Origin: Candidatus Saccharimonadota bacterium | GTDB taxonomy: Bacteria > Patescibacteriota > Saccharimonadia > Saccharimonadales > AWTP1-31 | Direction: 5' to 3' | Assembly (NCBI GenBank): GCA_003962975.1 | Contig: RXKC01000009.1 | Location: 9,578 to 73,577 of the forward strand | Length of the DNA: 64,000 nucleotides | Part shown: one piece after another, positions 1,319 to 49,457 of the stretch | Layout of the letters: each line of letters opens with the position of its first letter | Numbering within the stretch: the first letter of the stretch is position 1 | The notes under the pieces: generated by a model | What the model was told of the DNA's origin: nothing | Databases searched by the model: none | The model's input: the letters and a program-made list of their open reading frames with translations, nothing else | Program-made: the position numbers and the translations under genes

Positions 1319-3448
1319 ATGAGTGAATCAATGCAACCAGGACCAACCAACGCACAAGCCGCCGTCGATGCTATTCGAGCCGGCGAACAACAGGCTTCTA
1401 TCGACCGTACTCGTGCAGCTGAATGGGTTGCCAGTGCTGACGAAGCTCTTGCAGCACAACGCGAAAATGCCGCACCTGCAGAGGTCGCAGCTAAGCTCCA
1501 TGAGCGCACACAGTCATTTGAAGACATGAACAACTACTTGGCAGAACGCCCTGAAGTTCCTGTAGGCAAAGCATACTGGAGCAACAAGACTCACTATGAA
1601 GATTCACACGAAGGCAGCATTGAAGATCGCTCACTGAACGATCTTATTAGTGACTGGGCAGGTGCTGAAGACAACAACGACCCAACTCGTGCTATGGATG
1701 TACAAGACGAGATCGAACGACGTCTGACATCTGAAGAGAACATGAGCGACGATCTTAAGATGAACATGCTTGATCGTATTATTTCTAAAAAAGACGCACT
1801 TCGCCAAAACCAGGACACTGCTGTAGAAAACAATGCTGAGAACAACGTTGCTGATTCACAGCCAGTTGGTGGCGGTTACGGCAAAAAGGGTGATGAAATT
1901 ATCCAAGACGGTGGCCAAGCTACTAATAAAAAGTCAGAGAGTGATGATCTATGGGATCGTCTAAACCAGATTCCTGATCTAGAAAAGCCTGACAAGAAGA
2001 AAGGTGACAAGCCTTTTAACGAAAAGACCTTCGAAGAGTTGGTTGACGACAATCCTGACATTGCTCGTGACCTTCTAGAAAATGGTACTGAAGGTGGTAA
2101 GAAGCCACTTGATAAGACTCAAAAAATGGATCAGGTTAACCCTGACTACGACGGCCCTGTTAAGCCAGGTCAAGAGGTTGAACTTTGGAAGAAGCCTGAA
2201 ATCGAGCAAGTTGATCCTGAGCTACAAGGCTTGCAGAACACTCTGAAGTTAGCTCGTGACGAGTATGTACGCATTAGCGCATACCGCCGTGGCAAACTAT
2301 TCAGCCGTAAGGAAAGCAAGAAAGACCTTGAAGCTGCTAAAAAAGCTTACGATGACGCTCATGATGCAATCGGTGCCTACACTGCTAAGCAGATGGAAGC
2401 ACAAGACATTGATGCTGACCAGATTCGCCTGAACGGTGCTGCTGGTGCAATCTTCGAAGACCTCACCACAACAAAAGCTATCATCAAGGCTCAAGAAGGT
2501 CTTGCTGAAGGCAAGCGTTTCAAAGGCTTCTACAACTTCTGGGCACGCCAGAACGGTAAGATAACGACTGCTAAGGGTATCCGTGGTGCGATCGTAAAAT
2601 CCGGTGTGATGAAAGTTCTTACTCTTCCTGCCGGTATCGTAGCCGGTGCTGCTGGCGCAGCTTTGCTTGGCCCAGTTGCTGGTGCTTTAGTTGGTGCTGG
2701 TATAGCTAAGGGTATTGCAAGCGGCCTTATGGGTGCGAACATTGCCAAGAATGCTAGCGAATCAGTTGCTCGTGCACAGGGCATGGATGCCTTCTATAAG
2801 AACGAGGCTCGTATCAATGATCTTGCTGCAAACGGTGCAGTGATCAGTGGTGCTGAAAGCTCTGCTGGTACTATGGAACAAACTCGTGATGACACGATCC
2901 GTAACCGTAAGCGTATGGGTAAGGCTGCACTTATTGGTGCCGCTGGTGGTGCCGCTGGTGCCTTCGTTGGTAACATTATCCAAGACCGTTTCTTTGACGG
3001 CGGTGGTAATGGCGGAAATGCTAAAGGTGGCAACTCTGGTGCAGAGAACACTGGCGGTAAGGGTGGCAAGCCTGACGTAGATCTTACTGAAAACCTTCCA
3101 GACGCTACTCCTCTTGGTACCGTTGGTGAAACCGGTGCCGGCGCTGCCGGAGCTGGCCCAGTCGAGCTATTCCCAACCGACTCACGTCTTCCATGGGAAC
3201 ACGTAAACGACCTACTTGGTAACCTTGGCGATACGCAAGGTGGCGCAAACTCTACTCCTGCAATCTTCGAACTTGTAGAGCGTGGTAAACAGTACGGCAT
3301 CAACTTTGTTGGCGAAGGCCGTGGAATCAAGAGCGTAACAGTAAACGGTCAAACCTTTACTGACAACGCACACATCAACTCTGCCTTTGACGAAACCCTA
3401 CGACGCGTCCTTCTTGACGAAGCTGCTAAAACAGCCACTACCGCTTAA
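1319..3448 (+). CDS. Hypothetical large membrane protein (709 aa) with an acidic helical N-terminal half, glycine-zipper TM segments, a Gly/Asn-rich linker and a small C-terminal domain
   Basis: A long uninterrupted ORF; antisense ORFs inside it are short and low-complexity. AAAGGA lies 12 nt upstream of the ATG. Hydrophobic Gly/Ala stretches include LPAGIVAGAAGAALLGPVAGALVGAGIAKGIASGLMG and AALIGAAGGAAGAFVGNII. I recognise no family. Confidence 0.7.
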   Translation: MSESMQPGPTNAQAAVDAIRAGEQQASIDRTRAAEWVASADEALAAQRENAAPAEVAAKLHERTQSFEDMNNYLAERPEVPVGKAYWSNKTHYEDSHEGSIEDRSLNDLISDWAGAEDNNDPTRAMDVQDEIERRLTSEENMSDDLKMNMLDRIISKKDALRQNQDTAVENNAENNVADSQPVGGGYGKKGDEIIQDGGQATNKKSESDDLWDRLNQIPDLEKPDKKKGDKPFNEKTFEELVDDNPDIARDLLENGTEGGKKPLDKTQKMDQVNPDYDGPVKPGQEVELWKKPEIEQVDPELQGLQNTLKLARDEYVRISAYRRGKLFSRKESKKDLEAAKKAYDDAHDAIGAYTAKQMEAQDIDADQIRLNGAAGAIFEDLTTTKAIIKAQEGLAEGKRFKGFYNFWARQNGKITTAKGIRGAIVKSGVMKVLTLPAGIVAGAAGAALLGPVAGALVGAGIAKGIASGLMGANIAKNASESVARAQGMDAFYKNEARINDLAANGAVISGAESSAGTMEQTRDDTIRNRKRMGKAALIGAAGGAAGAFVGNIIQDRFFDGGGNGGNAKGGNSGAENTGGKGGKPDVDLTENLPDATPLGTVGETGAGAAGAGPVELFPTDSRLPWEHVNDLLGNLGDTQGGANSTPAIFELVERGKQYGINFVGEGRGIKSVTVNGQTFTDNAHINSAFDETLRRVLLDEAAKTATTA

Positions 3449-3503
3449 TAAGCTAGTAGCGTAAAATACCAATAACAGTAAAAAACAAAAAAAGGAAAAC
3501 AAA

Positions 3504-3812
3504 ATGACATACAGCAAAGAACAACTCATCCAGGAACTTGGTCTTGAGGGCTTTGACCCTGCTAAGCAGGAAGAACTACTAAACATGTTCTACACCAGCT
3601 TGAATATGAAACTGCGCATGGCAGTTGCAGCCGAGATTCCTGAAGATAAGATTGCTGAACTTGATGCAGAAATTGCTAAAGGTGATGATGCAGTTTACGA
3701 CTGGATCGACGCTAATGTTCCACAAGCGGCTGAGGTTATCGAAAAAGAGACTCAGACGGCTGTAGAAGATCTAAAACGCCGAATAGCACCATTTATGCCT
3801 AAAGGCGAGTAA
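3504..3812 (+). CDS. Small acidic helical hypothetical protein (102 aa)
   Basis: ORF directly downstream of the 709-aa gene and followed by a strong terminator. The leader is A-rich (aaaaaacaaaaaaaggaaaacaaaATG). It may belong to a CPR-restricted DUF family, but that is unverified memory. Confidence 0.65.
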   Translation: MTYSKEQLIQELGLEGFDPAKQEELLNMFYTSLNMKLRMAVAAEIPEDKIAELDAEIAKGDDAVYDWIDANVPQAAEVIEKETQTAVEDLKRRIAPFMPKGE

Positions 3813-3836
3813 AACCGTCAACAGCATAGCGCATAG

Positions 3837-3863
3837 CGCCCCAGCATCGTCTGGGGCGTTTTT
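3837..3863 (+). terminator. Rho-independent terminator
   Basis: 8-bp GC-rich stem CGCCCCAG / CTGGGGCG (3837-3844 and 3851-3858), a 6-nt loop, then TTTTT. Confidence 0.8.
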
Positions 3864-3882
3864 GTACGTTATTATAAAAGGT

Positions 3883-5166
3883 ATGAATCCAAAACAGCTG
3901 GTGCGCCGCGTACTACCCACAAAGGCCATTACATTAGCCGAAGAATCGTACCGTAAGGGCCGTGTATATGCCCTGCAAGCCAAAGGTGGCTTTCCGGCTA
4001 AGGGCGCCCGAGTTATTGCCGTAACAGGCACGAATGGCAAGACCACCACGTGTCTGTATATAAATGAAATGCTCAAGAGTGCTGGTTACAAAACAGCCCT
4101 GTATACGACGGCAGTAACCGAAATGGCGGGCAAAACCTCGCCAAACACTTCTCACCGGACAGTGCCTTTAACGGCAGAGTTGGTAACGTTTTTTCAAACT
4201 GCTAAAACAAAACAGGTAGACTTTATCGTGCTAGAAACTACCAGTCAGGCGCTCGATCAGCACAAGCTGCTGGGCGTGCCTGTAGAAGTAGCTGTGATGA
4301 CTAACCTGACACAAGATCACCTTGATTACCATGGAACCATGGAAAAGTATGCTAGTGCCAAAGCCCGACTATTTAGCAGCTATATGCAGCCCAAAAAAGT
4401 TGTACTGAATCAGGATGATGACTGGTTTGAGTTTTTTAAAGAGCGAGCTGTCGGAGATGTTACGACCTATGGCCAGGACGCACACAGTCAGCTACAAATC
4501 AACAAGATCGCTACTACAAATATGGGCAGTCAAGTGACGGTGCAGTTTGACGGCCAGACCAGTACTTTCAAAACTTCATTAATTGGGCAATTCAATGCCT
4601 ACAACGCGGCTGCAGCCGTTTCGGCAGGACTAGCCGTCGGTTTGACACTAGAACAGGCCGCAGCCGGTGCAGGCAAGCTACAAACTGCACCGGGACGTAT
4701 GGAGCCAGTTGATGCTGGGCAAAACTTCGCAGTCCTTGTCGACTATGCTCATACCCCAGATGCTCTAGAGAATGCTCTCAAAACACTTCAGGATGTTACC
4801 AAAGGTAATGTCTTGCTGGTGTTCGGTGCGACGGGAGACCGTGATAAGGCCAAACGTCCAATCATGGGTAAGGTAGTCGCAAAGTACGCTGATAAGATCT
4901 TTCTGACAGACGACGAAACCTACACCGAAGATCCAGCTACGATTCGTAAAGAAGTTATGCAAGGTATTCTTGCAGGTAAGGGCGTCCAAAAAACTACAGA
5001 AGTTGGTGACAGGCGCGAGGCCATACAAGCAGCTTTTGCGGCCGCTAAAAAGGGCGATGCAGTGCTCTTGGCTGGCCTCGGACATCAGGACTACCGAGCA
5101 ATGGGCGGCGAAAAACAATCCTGGGACGAGCGACAGATAGCCCGCGAACTGTTACGTCATCACTAG
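3883..5166 (+). CDS. murE: Mur ligase, MurE-type (UDP-MurNAc-L-Ala-D-Glu : diamino acid ligase)
   Basis: P-loop VIAVTGTNGKTTT, plus DYAHTPDALENAL and GATGDRDKAKRP blocks typical of MurE. I moved the start from the track's TTG at 3862 to the ATG at 3883, which has AAAGG upstream. The DAP-specific DNPR motif is absent (see findings). Confidence 0.85.
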   Translation: MNPKQLVRRVLPTKAITLAEESYRKGRVYALQAKGGFPAKGARVIAVTGTNGKTTTCLYINEMLKSAGYKTALYTTAVTEMAGKTSPNTSHRTVPLTAELVTFFQTAKTKQVDFIVLETTSQALDQHKLLGVPVEVAVMTNLTQDHLDYHGTMEKYASAKARLFSSYMQPKKVVLNQDDDWFEFFKERAVGDVTTYGQDAHSQLQINKIATTNMGSQVTVQFDGQTSTFKTSLIGQFNAYNAAAAVSAGLAVGLTLEQAAAGAGKLQTAPGRMEPVDAGQNFAVLVDYAHTPDALENALKTLQDVTKGNVLLVFGATGDRDKAKRPIMGKVVAKYADKIFLTDDETYTEDPATIRKEVMQGILAGKGVQKTTEVGDRREAIQAAFAAAKKGDAVLLAGLGHQDYRAMGGEKQSWDERQIARELLRHH

Positions 5167-14057: not shown

Positions 14058-14795
14058 ATGAAACCTAGTGTTACGCAACAAGATATTACTGGACTGGGCA
14101 CAATTTTATGCGTGGGTGCGCACCCAGATGATGAGACTTTTATGGCAGGTGGCCTGCTGGCTGCAGCAGCAGCTAACGGGCAAACGGTTATATGTGTAAC
14201 GGCAACCAAAGGTGAGGCTGGCTCGCAAGATCCTGTTAAATACCCGGTTGAGCGCATGGGCGAGGTGCGTACCGAGGAACTCGCAGCTGCGCTAAAAATT
14301 CTTGGTGTGCAAGAGCATCACTGGCTCGGGTACCTAGACGGCGAATGCACGCAGGTTGATCCGGGTGAGGCTACTCTCCGCTTACAACAAATCATCGAAA
14401 AATATCAGCCGAACACTGTACTAACTTTTGGCTCAGATGGACTGACCGGACACCCCGATCATCAAGCAGTGTCTTCATGGGTAACGACTGCGTTAGGCCA
14501 AAGTGAACTATCTCCTGAACTCTTCTATGCTGTTCTGACAACTGATCAATATCAGAAGTACCTACAGACAATCCATACCAGTCTGAACTTCTTTTATAAC
14601 ATTAAGCAACCGCCAGTTTATGCCGACCAAGACTGCGGCATTCTATTTACTAGTAATGACCAGCAATGTGCCAAAAAACAAGCAGCTTTTGCTGCCATGC
14701 CGTCGCAGTACAGTGCTATGTTTGCAGCTTTTGATGAAAGCTTTCTGACCGAAGCTTTTCGGGTTGAGGCCTTTGTTCGGGCTGATTCTAAATAG
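14058..14795 (+). CDS. PIG-L/LmbE family N-acetylglucosaminyl deacetylase
   Basis: GAHPDDETF and HPDH zinc-binding motifs of the PIG-L family. Confidence 0.85.
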   Translation: MKPSVTQQDITGLGTILCVGAHPDDETFMAGGLLAAAAANGQTVICVTATKGEAGSQDPVKYPVERMGEVRTEELAAALKILGVQEHHWLGYLDGECTQVDPGEATLRLQQIIEKYQPNTVLTFGSDGLTGHPDHQAVSSWVTTALGQSELSPELFYAVLTTDQYQKYLQTIHTSLNFFYNIKQPPVYADQDCGILFTSNDQQCAKKQAAFAAMPSQYSAMFAAFDESFLTEAFRVEAFVRADSK

Positions 14796-23005: not shown

Positions 23006-23422
23006 ATGGCAAACAAGTCGTTGACGGAAGATGAATGGAAAAAGAAGCTGACGCCACAGCAGTTCCATGTACTGAGAGAAAAGGGCACAGAGCATCCCGG
23101 CAGTGGAGTATATCTAGATCATGATGAAGACGGTATGTATTCCTGTGCCGGTTGTGGCAACAAGCTTTTTAAAAGTGACTCAAAATACGAATCAACCTTA
23201 CCTGGACTGATCGGTTGGCCTAGTTTTTCGGAACTGGCAGATGATGCCAGCGTCAAACTTGTCGATGACAATGCACTAGGTATGCAGCGGACAGAAGTAA
23301 TTTGTGCTAAGTGCGGTGGTCATTTGGGGCACGTTTTTCCTGATCATACGTCGGATACCGGGCAGCATTACTGTATCAACTCAGTAGCACTGAACTTTAA
23401 GGCAGATAAAGAAACGACCTAG
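23006..23422 (+). CDS. msrB: Peptide-methionine (R)-S-oxide reductase MsrB
   Basis: CAGCGNKLF and RTEVICAKCGGHLGHVF are canonical MsrB zinc and catalytic motifs. Confidence 0.93.
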   Translation: MANKSLTEDEWKKKLTPQQFHVLREKGTEHPGSGVYLDHDEDGMYSCAGCGNKLFKSDSKYESTLPGLIGWPSFSELADDASVKLVDDNALGMQRTEVICAKCGGHLGHVFPDHTSDTGQHYCINSVALNFKADKETT

Positions 23423-25016: not shown

Positions 25017-25565
25017 ATGCAAGACAAGAACGCTATACCCAGCAAGCTACTGTGGGTAGATTTAGAAATGACGGGCCTCGACGTGCCTAAAGACCGAATC
25101 ATCGAAGTTGCAGTGCTGGTCACAGACTTTAACTTCAGCGTGCTCGATAGCTACGAAGCGGTGATTCATCATGGTGACGAAGTGGTTAACAACATGAACC
25201 CTTGGGCTGCATCCCAGCATTCAGCCAGCGGCCTCACGGCCAAGGTACGAAGTAGTAAACTCACTGAAGAGCAGGTTATTGGTGAAGTTGTTGGCCTGAT
25301 AAAAGCTCAGTTTGGTGATGAACTAGCCATTTTAGCTGGTAATTCCATCTGGAATGATCGTAATTTTATTCGACACTGGTGGCCAGAAGTGGACCAGCTT
25401 TTGCACTATCGCATGCTTGATGTTAGTAGCTTTAAGGTGCTCATGCAGGGTCAGACTGGCTTTGTATTTGAAAAAGACAGCAGCCATCGAGCTCAAGACG
25501 ATATCCAGGCATCTATTGATGAGCTAAAAGCTTACCTGCAAAAGTTGAGCACCCATGGATCATAA
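25017..25565 (+). CDS. orn: Oligoribonuclease (DEDDh 3'-5' exoribonuclease)
   Basis: LLWVDLEMTGLD...IIEVA (Exo I), NSIWNDRNF (Exo II) and HRAQDDI (Exo III). I chose the start at 25017 by analogy to E. coli Orn length; 24990 and 24960 are alternatives. Confidence 0.87.
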   Translation: MQDKNAIPSKLLWVDLEMTGLDVPKDRIIEVAVLVTDFNFSVLDSYEAVIHHGDEVVNNMNPWAASQHSASGLTAKVRSSKLTEEQVIGEVVGLIKAQFGDELAILAGNSIWNDRNFIRHWWPEVDQLLHYRMLDVSSFKVLMQGQTGFVFEKDSSHRAQDDIQASIDELKAYLQKLSTHGS

Positions 25566-25917
25566 ACAAGTAGAAGAATATGTACTCAGCATGCCAAATG
25601 CTAAGCTGGACTATCCGTTTGGCGAGGATGTGGCGGTGTATAAAGTGCCGGTAAAAGACGACGACAAAATGTTCGCTTTGATACCAGAAAACACGACTCC
25701 TGTTCGCATTAGCTTGAAGTGTGACCCGGCCTTAGCAAAATTATTGCGCGAAAAATACATTACTGTCATGGAAGGCTACCACCTGAACAAAAAACATTGG
25801 AACACCATAGTCCTAAGCGGTGAGATCGAATGGGAAGAGATCCAAGGTTTTATTCGCCACAGCTATGACCTGGTGATTGGTGCCGACAACGCCTATCCAG
25901 AAATTATTAAGAAGTAA
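25555..25917 (+). CDS. MmcQ/YjbR family DNA-binding protein
   Basis: 120 aa. The LDYPFGEDVAVYKV...KMFALI pattern is typical of the YjbR family. It overlaps the orn stop. Confidence 0.72.
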   Translation: MDHKQVEEYVLSMPNAKLDYPFGEDVAVYKVPVKDDDKMFALIPENTTPVRISLKCDPALAKLLREKYITVMEGYHLNKKHWNTIVLSGEIEWEEIQGFIRHSYDLVIGADNAYPEIIKK

Positions 25918-25928
25918 TTTTTCGTTCG

Positions 25929-26579
25929 TTATTGCTGAGTTTGTTCACCCAGCAACAGGGTGGCGCCGTCGTAGGCTTCGGCCAGAATTTGTTTTTCACT
26001 CTGACTTTTACTAGTGTTGAATAATTTTTTTGCGGTGGCTTGATAGGTTTTGAGCTGAGCGCTCATGGTCTCTTTAAAGACTTCATCATAGGTGTTGTTG
26101 TCGGCTGCCGCGGCAAAATTTTTATCAGTGCTTTCTTTCTTTAACAAAGCCAGTTTTTTGTCATCTGCCTTTACTTTATATTTTTTCAGTAGGCCGAGCA
26201 CTTGCTCATGCGAGGATTGCACGGTGATGCTGGTGTTGGCAGCCAGCGTTTGCGTGGCCACGCCACGAGCGGCCGGCTCATTTTTACTCAGCCCAGCTGT
26301 GCGGATGATTTCTGCTTGTTGCTGAGCCATAACAAGTATTTCGCTACCCCTTTGCTTGTTGCCAGAAAATAGAGAACTCACCAGCATAAACAAAATGATT
26401 ACGACGACTAGACCACCAATACCAGCAAAAATAAGCCGTTTCTTCGAACCACCTCCACCGCTACTAACGCCACCTGAAAATAATGGTTTTTTCTGAGGCT
26501 CAGGGGTATTCATGAAAAAGTCATACTGACCAGGTTGTGGAGCTGGTGTTTGGGGTGCGGCCGGAGGTTGCTGATCCAT
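25929..26579 (-). CDS. Hypothetical single-pass membrane protein with a Pro/Gln-rich N-terminus
   Basis: 216 aa with a TM helix (LIFAGIGGLVVVIILFMLVSSLF). No family recognised. Confidence 0.55.
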   Translation of the reverse strand: MDQQPPAAPQTPAPQPGQYDFFMNTPEPQKKPLFSGGVSSGGGGSKKRLIFAGIGGLVVVIILFMLVSSLFSGNKQRGSEILVMAQQQAEIIRTAGLSKNEPAARGVATQTLAANTSITVQSSHEQVLGLLKKYKVKADDKKLALLKKESTDKNFAAAADNNTYDEVFKETMSAQLKTYQATAKKLFNTSKSQSEKQILAEAYDGATLLLGEQTQQ

Positions 26580-26661
26580 ATGCGTATTCTACCAGTAATA
26601 CGACCGCTCTCACTAGCCCCTTATGCTTTCAGGTTTAGCTTTTTCACTTTAGACTGTAGAT

Positions 26662-28428
26662 ATGGACGCGGTAGAGGAGATCAAGTCACGTTTAAGCATC
26701 GAAGATGTTGTTTCGCAGTACCTCGAGCTCAAACGATCCGGCCGCAACTTCAAGGCGCTGAGCCCTTTTAGCCAAGAGAAAACACCTAGTCTGATGATTA
26801 GCCCGGAAAAGCAGATATGGCATGACTTTAGTAGTGGTAAGGGTGGTGACATGTTTAGTTTTGTCATGGAAGTCGACGGTCTCGACTTCAAAGCTGCCCT
26901 CGACCTTTTGGCTCGTCAGGCCGGAGTTGATTTGTCACAGTTCCAGCGAAAAGGGGATGGCCAAGCAGCTAAATTGAAAGAGCAACTCTTTCAGGCCCTA
27001 GAAATGGCCACCAAGTACTACCAGGTGTGTCTGAGTCGTAGTTCCAGCACCATGACTTACGTTACCGAAAAACGTCAGTACTCCAAGCAAACCATAGCCA
27101 CCTTTCGGCTTGGGTATTCGCCAGAGCAGGGTGATGCCTTGGTGCAATTCTTGCTAAAAAAAGGCTTTACACAGGAAGTTATCCAAAAGGCTGGGCTTGG
27201 CACGCGCAGATATAAGGGCTTTGGAGATATGTTCCGGGGCAGGCTGATGGTGCCTCTGATGGATGCAACGGGTCGAGTGATTGGCTTTACGGCTCGAATA
27301 CTACGTGACGACCCAAATGCACCCAAATACATCAATACACCGCAGAGTCCGGTCTATGACAAAAGTCGTCATGTGTTTGGTCTGCATCTGGCCAAAGATG
27401 CCCTGCGCAAGCAGAACTACGCGGTGGTTGTAGAAGGCAACCTGGATGTTATTGCCAGCCACCAGGCTGGTGTGGCTAATGTGGTGGCTACAGCCGGCAC
27501 AGCTATGACCGAGCAGCACCTAAAAGCGCTGAGCCGATTCACAACTGATATTCGCATTGCCTTTGATCAAGATCAGGCCGGCTTGAAGGCAACTGAGCGT
27601 TCGATCCCAATCGCTAGCAAGGTTGGAGTCAGCCTGAGTATTATCACTGTGCCAGAGGGCAAAGACCCGGACGAATTGGTGAAAAAAGACCCAGCCGCAT
27701 GGCAAGCCGTGGTAGAAAAACCACAGTATGCGGTCGATTGGATCATCGACCGGTATAAGAATTTGCTGGATATAACCACCGCACAGGGAAAGCGTGCTTT
27801 TAGCGATCAAGTGCTTGCAACGCTCGAAGAGTTATCCGACAGTGTAGAAAAGGATCATTATGTACGCCAGGTCGCCGACTTACTCGGCGTCAGCCAAGAG
27901 GCGCTGCACCAAAAAAGTACTACATTTACCAAGAAAGTGGCTCCTAAGCGGCAAACTGTCCCGCAGCCACAACTCGATAAAGAGGCGCGGGACCAAACAC
28001 AGCTGCAAAATAAACTACTCGCTTTATGTCTCTTTTTGCCGAGCCTCAGAGGGTACTTGGACCCACTGACGACGGACATGTTTGCTGACCCGGCTGCCAA
28101 GAAACTTTTGCAAATCCTCAAGTCTCAGCCAGATTTTACGAGCGACCAGCTTGAGTCTACATCAGACAGCGCATTGCTGAGTTTGCAGGAATATGGTAAA
28201 ATTCTGTCATTAGTTTTTGATGAACTGTATAAGGATCTCGAGGTACTGGAACTTCGTTACGAAGCCGCTCGACTGCAAATCCGTAGAATAGAAACATATG
28301 TAAAAACCCAAAAAGCTCGTTTAAGCCGTGCCATGCAAACGGCTAGCGACACAGATATGGAGCGTTTGCTCGAAGCAGCAAAACGCCTCGATGTATTACT
28401 AAAAGCAACCAAGGAGACAAGTAAGTAA
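26662..28428 (+). CDS. dnaG: DNA primase DnaG
   Basis: N-terminal zinc-ribbon-homologous region, RNA polymerase core and Toprim ([17 protein letters not shown]). All Zn ligands are substituted (see findings). Confidence 0.93.
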
Positions 28429-29555
28429 TGCCCAAGAAGCCAGCCAAGAAAGAAGAAGCTCCTCTGAGTATTGAGGATCAAAAGAAAGAGCTCATCGCCA
28501 AAGCCAAAAAATCTGGCGAAGTTGATCAGCGAGATATCACTGCGATTTTTCCAGATACTCCAGAGAATATCGATGCACTGGATAGTCTGTATACCGAGCT
28601 AGCCGACAACAACATCAAGATCAATGCACCTGGCGATACCAATAACGGTACCGAATTTAGCGATGAGTGGAATGCCGAAGACAACGAAGAAATTGTTATC
28701 ACCGATCAAGTGTACCTAGATGATGTTGCTGATGACTCAGTTCGTTTGTACCTGCGTGAGATTGGTAAAATTCCACTCCTAAAGGCTGACGAAGAGTTAG
28801 CTCTAGCGCAGCGGGTTGTCGCAGGCGACAAGAAGGCCAAAGACGAAATGGCCGAAGCTAACATGCGTCTCGTGGTCAGTATCGCTAAGCGTTATGTAGG
28901 TCGTGGTCTCGATCTGCTCGATCTTATCCAAGAAGGTAACACCGGGCTACTTCGTGCAGTTGAAAAATTTGACCCAGATAAAGGCTTTAAGTTCTCGACC
29001 TATGCAACCTGGTGGATCCGGCAAGCCATTACGCGTGCTATTGCTGACCAGGCACGCACAATTCGTATTCCTGTGCACATGGTTGAGACCATCAACAAGC
29101 TACTGCGAACACAACGGCGCTTAACTCAAGAGCTCAACCGCGAACCGACCAATGACGAGATTGCCAAAGAAATGGAAATCGATGTCGAAAAAGTCGAACA
29201 CATCATGAAGATCAAGCAAGACATTAGCTCTCTTGATGCTAGCGTACGTGACGACGAAGAAGATTCAGTGCTCGGTGACTTTATTGAAGACGAAGACACC
29301 GTATCACCAGAAGAGTCTGCCACCGGCCAACTGTTGAAAGAGCACGTTAAAGACATGCTGGGCGCTCTGACCGAACGCGAACAGAAGATTCTTAAACTGC
29401 GTTTTGGTCTCGAGGACGGCAAGAGCCACACTCTCGAGGAAGTAGGGCAAGAGTTTAATGTCACCCGCGAACGTATCCGACAAATCGAAGCCAAAGCCTT
29501 GGCTAAGTTGCGCAAGCATAAAGATGCCCGCAAACTCCACGATTACATCAAATAG
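28428..29555 (+). CDS. rpoD: RNA polymerase sigma factor RpoD
   Basis: Regions 2-4 are canonical ([51 protein letters not shown]). The start overlaps the dnaG stop by 1 nt (TAATG). Confidence 0.96.
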
Positions 29556-39476: not shown

Positions 39477-41390
39477 ATGGATCCAGCTACTCCGCTTCAG
39501 CCGTACTTACCACCTGCGAATGCAGGGCCTGCGCCATTGCCGCCAGCGCCGTTGCAACAGGCGCCACTAACACCTGCAGGGCAGCCCCCGCAATCAGGTT
39601 ACCCGCAACCACCCGCAGGCTACCCACCTGTAGGCACTGCTGTACAGCCAGCTAACGCTGGTTTTCAGCCGCCAATTACGCCAACATCGTATCCACCGTT
39701 ACCACCTGCATCTAATAACCCCTTGCCAAGTTCTTTCCCACCCGGCTTGCCACAGTCACCAGTAGGTAACAGCTTTGATCAGCCAGCACCAGATGGAGCG
39801 GCGCTCAATATCAAAGACGACCTCATAGAAAAGCTTCGTGGCGCCAATAATGTTTTGGTAACCGTCAGTAATAACCCAACGGTTGACCAGTTATCGGCTG
39901 CTATTGGACTAACGTTAGTTCTGAACAAGTTGGATAAGCATGCTACTGCTGTGTACAGTGGCCAGACTCCACCAGCAATCGAGTTCTTGCAACCAGACAA
40001 AACACTCGAAAAAAACACCGATAGTTTACGTGACTTCATTATTGCCCTCGACAAGGCGAAAGCAGACAAGCTGCGCTACAAGGTTGAGGATAAGTTTGTA
40101 AAGATCTTTATAACTCCGTATCACACCAGTCTGAGCGAGAACGATCTTGAGTTTAGTCAGGGTGACTTCAACGTCGATGTTGTAGTGGCCATTGGTGTGC
40201 ATAAGCGTGATGAGCTTGATGAAGCTATTACTGCGCACGGCCGAATTCTCCATGATGCAGTTACGGCCAGTGTGAACAATCAGCAAACATCTGACCTGGG
40301 CACATTAAATTGGTTCGAAGGAACGGCAAGTAGCCTATGTGAAATGGTTGTATCTCTTATTGAACCGCTCCAGGGTGATAAGGCGCTTCTCGACGAGCAG
40401 ATTGCTACGGCATTCCTGACCGGCGTGGTTGCCGAGACTGATCGCTTTAGTAACGAAAAGACCTCTCCACATACTATGAACATCGCGGCATTGCTCATGA
40501 AAGCTGGCGCCAACCAACAACTGGTATCTAGTAAGCTAGAAGCACCACAGGCTATTCCGAAAGATGGCGATGTTGATAAGAAAAAACTCGATGAGCTCGT
40601 TGCCGAGAAGGGTGGAACCCCACTGCCAACCGTCAGTAAAGACGGATCGCTCGCCATTGACCACAAGGCTGAAGAAAAGCCGGCAGCACCAGCCAAGACA
40701 TTGGCCGACCTAGAGCGCGAGAATAAATCGAAAGACGAGGACGAGGGCGAAGATGGCGATCTTGCCAAGATACACATCGATGACGAAGGACGAATTGTAA
40801 ACGCTGCAGAAAAAACAAAAGACAGCGGTCCTATTGCTGAGCAGCCACCACACACTTCAAACATGGTTATGCAGCCACCGACTCTCGGCGGTGACCTAAG
40901 CTCAGCCACCAAAGCTGAATCTACGTCAGTTGCGGCTGTAGATAGTCCAGCACAAGACACAACGTTGTCTCCTCATGGCAAAACCATCGAGCCTTTAACA
41001 GAGGCAGACAAAGGTCAGACACTCGCACAAATTGAAGAGACGGTGGGTAGCCCACATGTTGCCAGCGCAGATGCATTGAACTTGCCGCCAGTGCCAGATC
41101 AGACTGCCGCAGCACGGCAGGCTGTTGAGGCTGCCGCAAGCGCAGTTCCCGATAGGTTGGAGCCAATCGCAGCACTTAATGCTCAACCAGTTGATCTAAA
41201 GAAAGATCAGCCAGCACCGACTCCTGCGCCAGCACCTGCTCCTGTAGACGATCACGTGCCAACAAACGAAGAGATATTTCCGGCTCAGATAATTGGTCCT
41301 GATAAAGGGCTGCCGCCAGATCCAACGGCAGGGGCTGCTGATCCAAGTGCACCGCCGCCAGTACCACCTCCGCTGATGCCAACCTCATAG
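39477..41390 (+). CDS. Hypothetical protein with a Pro-rich N-terminus, a DHH/DHHA1-like core with degenerate catalytic motifs, and a long disordered acidic/Pro-rich C-terminus
   Basis: 637 aa. NNVLVTVSNNPTVDQLSAAIGL, DVVVAIGVHKRD and GVVAETDRFSNEKTS are collinear with NrnA-type DHH motifs I-IV, but most metal ligands are replaced. Confidence 0.6.
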   Translation: MDPATPLQPYLPPANAGPAPLPPAPLQQAPLTPAGQPPQSGYPQPPAGYPPVGTAVQPANAGFQPPITPTSYPPLPPASNNPLPSSFPPGLPQSPVGNSFDQPAPDGAALNIKDDLIEKLRGANNVLVTVSNNPTVDQLSAAIGLTLVLNKLDKHATAVYSGQTPPAIEFLQPDKTLEKNTDSLRDFIIALDKAKADKLRYKVEDKFVKIFITPYHTSLSENDLEFSQGDFNVDVVVAIGVHKRDELDEAITAHGRILHDAVTASVNNQQTSDLGTLNWFEGTASSLCEMVVSLIEPLQGDKALLDEQIATAFLTGVVAETDRFSNEKTSPHTMNIAALLMKAGANQQLVSSKLEAPQAIPKDGDVDKKKLDELVAEKGGTPLPTVSKDGSLAIDHKAEEKPAAPAKTLADLERENKSKDEDEGEDGDLAKIHIDDEGRIVNAAEKTKDSGPIAEQPPHTSNMVMQPPTLGGDLSSATKAESTSVAAVDSPAQDTTLSPHGKTIEPLTEADKGQTLAQIEETVGSPHVASADALNLPPVPDQTAAARQAVEAAASAVPDRLEPIAALNAQPVDLKKDQPAPTPAPAPAPVDDHVPTNEEIFPAQIIGPDKGLPPDPTAGAADPSAPPPVPPPLMPTS

Positions 41391-47291: not shown

Positions 47292-49457
47292 ATGAATCCA
47301 AATAACAATCAAACGGCCAACTCAAACGGCCAACAGGGCAATCGCCCTAAACCAAATAACCGTTCTGGTAATAAACCAGGCGGCAACGGACGTCCTAATA
47401 ATCGTGGGCGTGGACCAAAGCCAGCTGCTAACAATGCAGCACCAGCACCTACGGTCGGCCGCAGCGTATCACGTGGTGCGGCACTTCGAGCGCAAAAGCG
47501 CAACCAAGAAGATGCTATGCGCATCGCTAGCCAGCACCTAGACGCCAGCAGCAAGAACCAAAAAGTTCAACGAGCTAACTTCATCGATGACACACCTCGT
47601 CTAAAAATTGTTGGCTTGGGTGGCATGGACGGTGGTGGTTCTAAAAACACCATCCTCGTTGAATATATGAATGATGCGGTCATTATGGACTGTGGTAACG
47701 ACCTGGGTGTTGACCTGCCGGGTATTAACTACGGTATTGTCGATACTGCATACCTCGAAACCATTAAGCACAAGATTCGTGCCTATATCATCACCCATGG
47801 TCACCTCGACCACATCGGTGGTTTGCCGCATATTGTGCCTAAGTTTCCAGCACCAATTTACGGTAGTAAATTCACTATTGGTCGTGTTGAAGAAATTTTC
47901 CAGAACTTTGGCTTGCCAATGCCAGATGGCTTTGAGCTAAAGACAGTCATGATGAACGAAGACACTCATGAGCGTCTCAAGATCGGTAGCTTCTTTGTAG
48001 AGTTGGTGCGTGTTACGCACTCTATTCCAGGCAGCACCTGTATTGTGCTCGACTCACCGGTAGGGCGTCTCATCAACACTGGTGACTTCCGTTTTGACCC
48101 TAATCCACTTGACCACGAAAAGACGGACATGGATCGCCTGAAGCAGCTTGGTGACGAAGGTGTGCTCGCGCTACTTAGTGAGAGTACCACTACTGACCGC
48201 CCAGGTTGGACCCCGAGCGAAAGCACCATTGAACAAACAATTGTAGACATCATGGACAATGCGCCTGGACGTATCTTTGTCGGACTTTTCAGTACCAACA
48301 TGAACCGCGTACAGATGATCATTAACGCAGCCGTTCACCATGGCAAAAAAGTTGCTATCGACGGTCGCAGTATGGTGAGTACGCTTGAAATGGCTGTGCG
48401 CCACGGCTTTGTGCGCATTCCAAAGGGAACCTTTGTGCCAATCGCTTCTGCCTCAACTATGAACGACAAAGACCTTGTGGTGGTCTGTACCGGTTCGCAG
48501 GGTGAGCCTAGCTCAGCGCTGCAGCGCATGAGTACTGGCGATCACCGACACGTAAAGCTTAAAGAGCAAGACACTGTCATTTTCTCTAGCTCTCCAATCC
48601 CATATACCGGTAACGATGCCAAGATTCGTTCTATGGTAGACGACTTCATGAAGAAGGGTATTCACATCTTCCAGCATATTACTCGTGACGTAGATGAGCA
48701 CGGCCCGCTGCACGTTTCTGGTCATGCCAGCATCGATGAGTATGCCGAAATGATTAATATGACCAAGCCTAAGTTCTTTGTGCCGATCTACGGTGACTAC
48801 ACCGCTAAAAAGCGACACATCGACGTGGCTATCAATAATGGCATTCCACGCAAGAACACCATAAACGCCGATAACGGTGAAGTAATTGCGTTCACAAAAG
48901 ACACCATGGAGCCGGGTGGTACTGTGCCACACGGAACAGTACTGGTCGACCAAACCGGAGCTATTGTCAGCAACGTTGTGGTCAAAGACCGACTAATGCT
49001 CGCCGAAGAAGGCTTGGTAGCGGTTGTCCTCACTGTCGATAAACGCACCGGTGGTCTTGCCACTAGTCCGGATATTATCAGCCGTGGCTTTATCTACATG
49101 CGAGATAATGAAGAGCTGATGAATGCCTTTCGTGCCGAGCTTCGTCGAGCTGTCTCTCAGCGCTTCAAGCGTGTCGACCTAGATCGTTTCAAACAAGAGA
49201 TCCGCGAGCATGTCACGCACTTCCTATTCGAGCATACCCAGCGCAGCCCAATTGTTATTCCAGTAGTGAATGTTATTGGCGGTAAATCTGGTGATAAGAA
49301 CGGATCTAACGGCAATTCGAATGGTCACGGGGCAAAGAACGATAAGCAGTCAGAACAACCAGTGCAGCTTACGCCAGAACAAGAAGCTGAAGAGCTACAA
49401 AAGCGTTTCCAGCAAATGCGTGCCAAGCTGCTTAACCAGGATGCCCGAACTGACTAA
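47292..49457 (+). CDS. rnj: Ribonuclease J
   Basis: Metallo-beta-lactamase motif ITHGHLDHIGGLP, a beta-CASP region and HVSGHAS. There are N-terminal (about 75 aa, N/G/R/P-rich) and C-terminal low-complexity extensions. Confidence 0.92.
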   Translation: MNPNNNQTANSNGQQGNRPKPNNRSGNKPGGNGRPNNRGRGPKPAANNAAPAPTVGRSVSRGAALRAQKRNQEDAMRIASQHLDASSKNQKVQRANFIDDTPRLKIVGLGGMDGGGSKNTILVEYMNDAVIMDCGNDLGVDLPGINYGIVDTAYLETIKHKIRAYIITHGHLDHIGGLPHIVPKFPAPIYGSKFTIGRVEEIFQNFGLPMPDGFELKTVMMNEDTHERLKIGSFFVELVRVTHSIPGSTCIVLDSPVGRLINTGDFRFDPNPLDHEKTDMDRLKQLGDEGVLALLSESTTTDRPGWTPSESTIEQTIVDIMDNAPGRIFVGLFSTNMNRVQMIINAAVHHGKKVAIDGRSMVSTLEMAVRHGFVRIPKGTFVPIASASTMNDKDLVVVCTGSQGEPSSALQRMSTGDHRHVKLKEQDTVIFSSSPIPYTGNDAKIRSMVDDFMKKGIHIFQHITRDVDEHGPLHVSGHASIDEYAEMINMTKPKFFVPIYGDYTAKKRHIDVAINNGIPRKNTINADNGEVIAFTKDTMEPGGTVPHGTVLVDQTGAIVSNVVVKDRLMLAEEGLVAVVLTVDKRTGGLATSPDIISRGFIYMRDNEELMNAFRAELRRAVSQRFKRVDLDRFKQEIREHVTHFLFEHTQRSPIVIPVVNVIGGKSGDKNGSNGNSNGHGAKNDKQSEQPVQLTPEQEAEELQKRFQQMRAKLLNQDARTD

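Follow-up and report, generated by a model that had tools for sequence, protein, structure and literature searches.

The DNA analyzed here is a stretch of 64,000 nucleotides, referred to below as the window, from the Candidatus Saccharimonadota bacterium assembly GCA_003962975.1 (contig RXKC01000009.1, positions 9,578 to 73,577 of the forward strand). It contains dnaG, the gene for the replicative primase, directly followed by rpoD. The zinc-binding domain (ZBD) at the N-terminus of this primase has kept its ribbon scaffold, whereas all four metal ligands have been replaced. The features of the locus, including the open reading frame (ORF) of dnaG and the RNA-polymerase domain (RPD) of its product, are as follows.

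26662..28428, forward strand: dnaG, 588 aa, complete housekeeping primase gene (ORF; TIGR01391; Pfam)
26668..26940, forward strand: ZBD, Zn_ribbon_DnaG PF01807, residues 3-93 (E 1.3e-26; score 92.7 bits, cutoff 24.9)
26761..26772, forward strand: knuckle 1, S34-P35-F36-S37 in place of C-P-F-H (alignment to 2AU3)
26824..26835, forward strand: knuckle 2, D55-F56-S57-S58 in place of C-F-G-C (alignment; ZBD survey)
27019..27396, forward strand: N-terminal subdomain of the RPD, DNAG_N, residues 120-245 (PF08275, E 2.6e-31)
27418..27684, forward strand: Toprim catalytic fold, residues 253-341 (PF13155 and PF13662), with E258-G-N-x-D262, D302-x-D304 and D335-P-D337
27736..28425, forward strand: DnaB-binding subdomain (residues 359-413; PF10410, E 1.6e-11) and helical C-terminal helicase-interaction region
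28428..29555, forward strand: rpoD (sigma-70), regions 1.1-4, whose start overlaps the dnaG stop by one base (TAATG)
26650..26652, forward strand: in-frame TAG stop, 4 codons upstream of the dnaG ATG (read from the sequence)

A housekeeping primase without zinc ligands

The dnaG equivalog model of NCBIfam, TIGR01391, matched the protein at 387.5 bits, well above its cutoff (283.6), and covered residues 3-408. Foldseek comparison of the predicted model revealed that its RPD matches DnaG RPD structures (target TM-score, TMt, 0.77-0.87). The PKYxNTP motif and the Arg residues of the RPD were invariant in the homolog alignment, and the acidic residues E258/D262, D302/D304 and D335/D337 were invariant in sets of 82 and of 110 homologs. 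The C-terminal helical bundle was modeled by AlphaFold2 (AF2) with a predicted local distance difference test score (pLDDT) of about 90, and DnaB binding is predicted from the PF10410 match. The dnaG-rpoD order was common to the window and to the loci of its relatives (L081-L086). A preliminary description, made from the sequence alone, had taken the protein for a DnaG with an intact polymerase core and Toprim domain, coupled to rpoD and not a pseudogene; the family model, the Pfam domains (the DnaB-binding domain included), the invariant catalytic motifs, the conserved ZBD, the intact 588-aa ORF and the TAATG overlap all agree with this. Judged by its sequence, the window ORF is a bona fide DnaG in which one defining feature of the ZBD, the metal ligands, is missing and all else is kept.

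To locate the ligand positions, the protein was aligned with known structures by phmmer against the PDB. The match to Aquifex aeolicus DnaG 2AU3 spanned residues 4-342 (E 2e-60), and that to 1D0Q, the ZBD of G. stearothermophilus, spanned residues 3-95 (E 3e-24). The C/H/C/C ligand columns of 2AU3 ('nyrtnCpfHpddtps...kqifkCfgCgvggd') faced S34, S37, D55 and S58 of the window protein, which are encoded by AGC, AGC, GAC and AGT, respectively; the codon of S34 begins at 26761 and that of S58 ends at 26835. The preliminary description had read the N-terminus as the CHC2 ribbon of DnaG, with a conserved scaffold and with Ser, Ser, Asp and Ser at the ligand positions. PF01807 and the two structural alignments bear out this reading, with the letters as it quoted them and the coordinates exact to the codon. 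The Cys-x2-His ... Cys-x2-Cys ligand pattern of PF01807 is absent from the window ZBD, though the domain model matches. The whole protein contains only two cysteines, C123 and C456, both outside the ZBD, and residues 1-122 are free of cysteine. A fifth change, G57S, is coupled to the four ligand replacements, and C-P-F-H ... C-F-G-C has become S-P-F-x ... D-F-S-S, five positions in all.

Canonical DnaG proteins (E. coli, G. stearothermophilus 1D0Q and A. aeolicus 2AU3) share with the window protein the ZBD-RPD/Toprim-helicase-binding architecture, the catalytic motifs and the dnaG-rpoD order. A five-strand ribbon like theirs is predicted for it by the AF2 model from the more diverse alignment, with 47% identity to 1D0Q over 96 columns. 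They differ from it in the ligands, which in the window lineage have changed from C to S, H to S/T or others, C to D and C to S, and in the knuckle Gly, which has changed to Ser. The C/H/C/C set has been described as highly conserved in DnaG (PMC6163395, PMC8928506).

Such a sequence could in principle stem from an error in sequencing or assembly, a wrongly called start or a pseudogene; nothing was found in favor of any of these. Four contigs, which come from no fewer than 3 independent runs (SRR6439736, SRR28640827 and SRR17347220), carry a 100% identical protein, and hundreds of homologs are in the same state. The in-frame TAG at 26650-26652, together with the divergent neighbor gene that starts at 26579, 83 bp upstream of dnaG, rules out a longer N-terminus with a canonical motif, and the alignments to 2AU3 and 1D0Q already begin at residues 3-4. 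Taken with the intact ORF and its full set of domains, these results leave an artefact of any of these kinds a negligible probability. Both errors that the preliminary description had named as ways in which it could be wrong, misread codons and an upstream start that hides a canonical CHC2 motif, are therefore not supported.

Conservation of the ligand-less ribbon

The ligands were absent in all of the 120 best matches to the window protein among 5.8 billion proteins (120/120; 59-100% identity), which share the motif LSPFx.E..PS. Where these matches were named, the names were Saccharibacteria, Saccharimonadales and Patescibacteria; the names of the homologs also agree with a placement of the DNA in Saccharibacteria within the Candidate Phyla Radiation (CPR). 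On this sequence evidence, the loss of the ligands is real and fixed across the lineage and is not an assembly error.

We surveyed 472 ZBDs, comprising 266 ligand-less, 205 canonical and 1 intermediate domain, in a protein sample biased by its ligand-less queries, in which the proportions are not prevalences. In the 266 ligand-less ZBDs, S34 and D55 were each present at 100%, S57 at 99% and S58 at 96%, while position 37 held S (57%), T (23%) or G (8%). The 205 canonical ZBDs had C, H and then C (100%), with G57 at 100% and with C (86%) or A (10%) as the fourth ligand. Across 312 ligand-less proteins, position 37 was occupied by S in 153, T in 65, R in 44, G in 22, N in 19, K in 4, Q in 3 and A in 2. 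A donor of hydrogen bonds or salt bridges (S, T, N, Q, K or R) was present at this position in 288 of the 312.

Mean pairwise identity among 82 homologs was 0.83 in the ZBD, 0.67 in the N-terminal subdomain of the RPD, 0.74 in Toprim and 0.46-0.50 in the C-terminal parts. On comparing the ZBD with the RPD, the identities were 0.76/0.64 and 0.83/0.67 in ligand-less proteins and 0.71/0.55 in their closest Cys-bearing relatives, the same ratio. Constraint on the ZBD has not loosened, and this speaks against a vestigial domain.

Within the primase superfamily, metazoan Twinkle comes nearest as a precedent. In this T7 gp4-like helicase, whose primase half is degenerate, the ZBD-homologous region has likewise lost the zinc cysteines (PMC5737085). 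Twinkle structures were among the Foldseek fold matches of the window model. In Twinkle, the catalytic residues of the RPD have also been lost and there is no priming, whereas in the window protein the RPD and Toprim are conserved and the ZBD is the most constrained part. The window ZBD could be a decaying, non-functional remnant of the Twinkle kind, in a cell where a second primase or some other factor provides priming or its specificity. The loss of primase activity that accompanies the loss of zinc cysteines in Twinkle (PMC5737085) and the size of the inspected part of the genome, 64 kb, speak for such a remnant. Nevertheless, no domain of the protein is more conserved than the ZBD, and its constraint against the core is unchanged relative to Cys-bearing relatives, the catalytic motifs of RPD and Toprim are all invariant, unlike those of Twinkle, and the housekeeping position of dnaG next to rpoD is kept in all lineages checked. 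We consider a remnant very improbable. Only one dnaG, at the housekeeping locus, came up when the ORFs of the 64-kb window were surveyed; this survey included no search aimed at a second primase.

One protein of 584 aa, P0493, which lies on a 179-kb contig, carries the source label 'Bacillota bacterium' and has an S-S-D-S-S ZBD of the Saccharimonadia type, nearly identical to that of the window. It probably comes from a mis-binned or mis-named metagenome-assembled genome (MAG).

Origin and apparent recurrence in Patescibacteria

An exhaustive HMMER search of 1.84 billion cluster representatives revealed about 40 ligand-less clusters in the top 150, mixed with canonical ones from rank 11. The nearest canonical group (P0129, P0132, P0278, P0283 and others) was 47-50% identical to the ligand-less proteins, and its distance to them was about the distance among the ligand-less subfamilies. 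The P0129 locus (L086) is syntenic with the window, with YjbR, a small reverse ORF, dnaG, rpoD and a 191-aa AAA_18 kinase-like gene. The window genes that flank dnaG-rpoD in this shared order are as follows.

25555-25917: flanking gene syntenic with L086
25929-26579: flanking gene syntenic with L086
29571-30146: flanking gene syntenic with L086

The gene order shared by the window and P0129 indicates that the canonical and the ligand-less states occur in syntenic relatives. In a neighbor-joining tree of the catalytic core, the main ligand-less family, the P0129-type canonical groups and one intermediate, P0134, formed one clade (bootstrap 70-81%), and every well-supported shallow subclade of the tree was uniform in ligand state. 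The tree resolves the branching neither inside this clade nor deeper (deep bootstraps below 25%), which makes the number of independent losses uncertain. The inferences on recurrence given below use only the well-supported shallow groupings and pairwise identities; neither a precise count of losses nor monophyly of the main family is claimed.

A search seeded with the divergent P0221 revealed a second ligand-less family of about 44 clusters (P0221 and P0397-P0437), of the type S-R-D-G-G, with the motif LSPFRxE.TPSF.VSPELQI[FY]KDFGGDK[SA]GD. One of its members is named Candidatus Parcubacteria bacterium, and at its locus L085 (3001-4809) dnaG lies upstream of rpoD. This family formed a clade of its own (bootstrap 91) with a canonical CHCC sister (80), outside the Saccharimonadia-type clade. 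An intermediate state, S-x-C-S-S, in which the third cysteine alone is left, was present in two unrelated DnaG proteins, P0134 (S,T,C,S,S) and P0479 (S-N-C-S-S; locus L084, 3001-4863). P0479 was 54% identical to the canonical Patescibacteria DnaG L054 and 37% identical to the window protein. With the five signature columns removed, its ZBD was 79% identical to that of L054, compared with 60% to that of the window protein. P0212 (S-N-D-S-S) and P0150 (S-K-D-S-S) were also nearer to canonical CHCC proteins, in the ZBD as well as in the core. The serines are encoded by AGC/AGT in the window, by TCC/TCC in P0479 and by TCA in P0221, and the AGY and TCN codons point to different single-step routes from TGY.

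These results suggest, with moderate confidence and from one gene analyzed by distance methods, that ligand replacement has been repeated and convergent in Patescibacteria. The two S-x-C-S-S intermediates suggest that Cys55 to Asp, a two-nucleotide change, was the last step of an ordered path. We propose more tentatively, at somewhat less than even chances, that CPR bacteria converted the primase ribbon to a metal-free form several times independently, with nearly the same residue code each time and with Asp arriving last. The code would place Ser at the first ligand and Asp at the third, with a donor at the second and either Ser or Gly at the knuckle and at the fourth ligand. Fixation across the lineage, the fifth coupled substitution G57S and, apparently, more than one origin go beyond what the preliminary description had reported.

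Partial loss of the ligands was also observed. Among the matches listed from a scan of GTDB genomes, for which the Cys-containing pattern N[FLY]KGLCPFH was used and which gave only canonical or three-ligand DnaG proteins (31-43% identity), DnaG proteins of Chloroflexota MAGs (Dehalococcoidia and Anaerolineae) were of the C-H-C-Ala type ('WHCFGAGTGGD'), with the fourth ligand missing in a second phylum. The loci of this type are as follows.

About 3001-4500 in most: C-H-C-Ala dnaG in L006-L008, L010, L019, L021, L027, L029, L033, L034, L039, L040, L043, L045 and L046

A few Patescibacteria DnaG proteins carry C-H-C-S/G. The three-ligand proteins (C-H-C-A/S/G; Chloroflexota and some Patescibacteria) resemble the window protein in the natural erosion of the zinc site; in them, water or a further residue could complete a site that still binds zinc, whereas the window DnaG retains no ligand. 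Unusual domain arrangements were found in other relatives: P0499 (972 aa) carries intein and homing-endonuclease Pfam domains, and in P0149 and P0151 (1240 and 1358 aa, respectively) the primase core is preceded by an N-terminal extension of 700-850 residues.

A candidate metal-free ribbon and its meaning

The window dnaG probably encodes the sole housekeeping primase of the cell, with a functional, metal-free five-strand ribbon that has kept its role in template recognition and initiation and has lost zinc at the canonical site. The replacement would have been fixed early in the Saccharimonadia-type lineage and then kept by purifying selection, and similar solutions would have arisen separately in other Patescibacteria.

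In place of the tetrahedral Cys3His center stands a polar cluster, with S34 and D55 first in each knuckle and S57-S58 in place of G-C. Ser and Asp are the residues of ST- and Asx-turns, where backbone NH bonds go to the side-chain oxygen just as they go to the cysteine sulfur in a zinc knuckle. Ser34 and Asp55 may cap their own turns in this manner, replacing the backbone NH...S bonds of the cysteines. Asp55 would then be an acceptor hub that joins both knuckles instead of the metal, with hydrogen bonds from Ser/Thr/Asn37 and Ser57/58, or with a salt bridge where position 37 carries Arg/Lys, as in the S-R-D-G-G and S-K-D-S-S types. Hydrophobic packing may be contributed by F36, W53 and F56. 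The invariance of the first position of each knuckle and the variability of the second, with mostly a donor at position 37, fit this model of knuckle caps and a hub.

The site could alternatively hold a hard metal (Mg2+, Ca2+ or Mn2+) through the Asp55 carboxylate and the hydroxyls of Ser34, Ser57 and Ser58. The replacements are indeed all oxygen donors (S34/D55/S57/S58 at 96-100%), and every ligand-less family has one invariant acidic residue at a former ligand position. However, Ser hydroxyls are weak ligands and a lone carboxylate makes a poor site, and the Arg/Lys found at position 37 in 48 of the 312 proteins would repel a cation. A basic residue able to pair directly with Asp55 favors a hub role of this Asp over a cation at the site. 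The S-R-D-G-G family, which is equally conserved, has Gly at both 57 and 58 and has lost most of the putative ligands; what it keeps, S34, D55 and the Arg alone, cannot be reconciled with a metal site. A hard metal is therefore unlikely.

Zinc bound by relocated ligands within the domain, such as H54, D55, E39, E49 or D63, is less likely still and has a very small probability. The main family shows high conservation of H54, E39 and D63, as this explanation would have it. Canonical Cys-bearing ZBDs conserve these residues to the same degree without using them as ligands, and H54 is replaced by Lys in other ligand-less families ('IWKD', 'IYKD'). Moreover, the neighboring strand residues 54 and 55 face opposite sides of the sheet, and the ZBD has no Cys.

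The predicted fold is compatible with a ribbon. AF2 with 110 diverse sequences (99 ligand-less and 11 canonical) gave a pLDDT of 86-93 in the ZBD, with strands at residues 24-26, 29-33, 42-47, 52-55 and 60-62, and this model matched 1D0Q in Foldseek with a TMt of 0.87 and a root-mean-square deviation of 2.2 A over 96 columns. The model is supportive of a five-strand ribbon compatible with the ligand-less sequence; it is not decisive, and as a second model it is no independent proof.

Several points weigh against a functional metal-free ribbon. AF2 with the 82 close ligand-less homologs modeled the core well and gave residues 27-46 a pLDDT below 50 and a helix at 48-57. The confident ribbon appeared only after diverse sequences were added, including the 11 Cys-bearing ones, which may have biased the fold call. 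'Metal-free' and 'functional' are themselves read from sequence conservation and predicted fold, and the hydrogen-bond network is a proposed one. The survey sample was biased as stated above, and a second primase is possible elsewhere in a genome of which 64 kb were seen.

Of the two implications drawn in the preliminary description, a zinc-independent ribbon is the favored one, and altered initiation specificity finds no support in the sequence. In G. stearothermophilus, the residue pair published as setting specificity is I58/F59, where the central strand ends (PMC8928506); its equivalent in the window protein is I52-W53. This pair ('QIWH') is the same in many canonical, Cys-bearing CPR primases.

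Zinc-site loss is also found among ribosomal proteins. Makarova et al. in 2001 reportedly described zinc-ribbon ribosomal proteins and their C- paralogs. Cys-less C- ribosomal proteins and DksA2 are the precedent for repeated loss of zinc-ribbon or Cys4 sites from essential proteins that bind nucleic acids, with fold and function kept; the loss has been read as zinc sparing or altered redox behavior (PMC11672702). The C- paralogs are usually extra copies induced by zinc limitation beside a zinc-binding copy, whereas the sole dnaG seen in the window is ligand-free, housekeeping and fixed in the lineage. DksA2 keeps two Cys and the window ZBD none. By analogy with these proteins, zinc sparing and avoidance of oxidizable thiolates are plausible drivers. 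The most plausible is relief from dependence on zinc or oxidizable thiols in a Cys-poor, reduced genome, although the driver is not established. Cys makes up 0.56% of the residues in 76 window ORFs. Three other window genes with zinc motifs are as follows.

23006-23422, forward strand: MsrB, both zinc CxxC pairs kept (CAGC and CAKC)
47292-49457, forward strand: RNase J, HGHLDH kept
14058-14795, forward strand: PIG-L deacetylase, AHPDDE and HPDH kept

Genome-wide avoidance of zinc or cysteine is unsupported, as the zinc motifs of these three proteins are intact. The rest of the window carries genes typical of a chromosome, among them those of GroEL, ArgRS, Pol I, PNPase, RNase J, FtsK and TsaD, and the GC content is 47.9%. 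No tRNA genes (ARAGORN) and no Rfam families at the gathering threshold were found in the 64-kb, otherwise gene-dense window. Three large ORFs without a Pfam match at E<=1e-5 were observed.

1319-3448, forward strand: ORF of 709 aa without any cysteine
39477-41390, forward strand: ORF of 637 aa
61203-63566, forward strand: ORF of 787 aa with 11 cysteines

Bacterial DnaG is generally recognized by its CHC2 zinc site, which counts as a hallmark, and the ZBD is held responsible for recognition of the priming site and regulation of primer synthesis. T7 primase with mutated zinc cysteines is said, in work of Mendelman et al. in 1994 and Kusakabe et al. in 1999, to lose template-directed synthesis. 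No prior description of a ligand-less DnaG in Saccharibacteria/CPR was found in the searchable literature, which is not proof of novelty; the ligand-less DnaG is apparently undescribed so far.

The apparent convergence on one residue pattern makes the role of zinc in DnaG directly testable through swaps of five residues, in either direction. The ligand-less ribbon may also serve as a template for metal-free zinc-ribbon design and as a lineage marker for CPR replisomes, and it would call for caution with primase-targeted antibiotics or zinc-ejecting compounds. If convergent conversion is true, it would reveal a natural design rule, by which a Cys3His center becomes an Asp-centered hub of hydrogen bonds and salt bridges in an essential replication enzyme. 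It would also mean that DnaG can do without zinc in sequence-specific priming, and would point to lineage-wide selection on the replisome, from zinc scarcity or thiol oxidation in the episymbiotic lifestyle. If the ZBD can be ligand-free and yet the most constrained domain of the only primase seen in a broad lineage such as Saccharibacteria/TM7, its function would not depend intrinsically on the metal.

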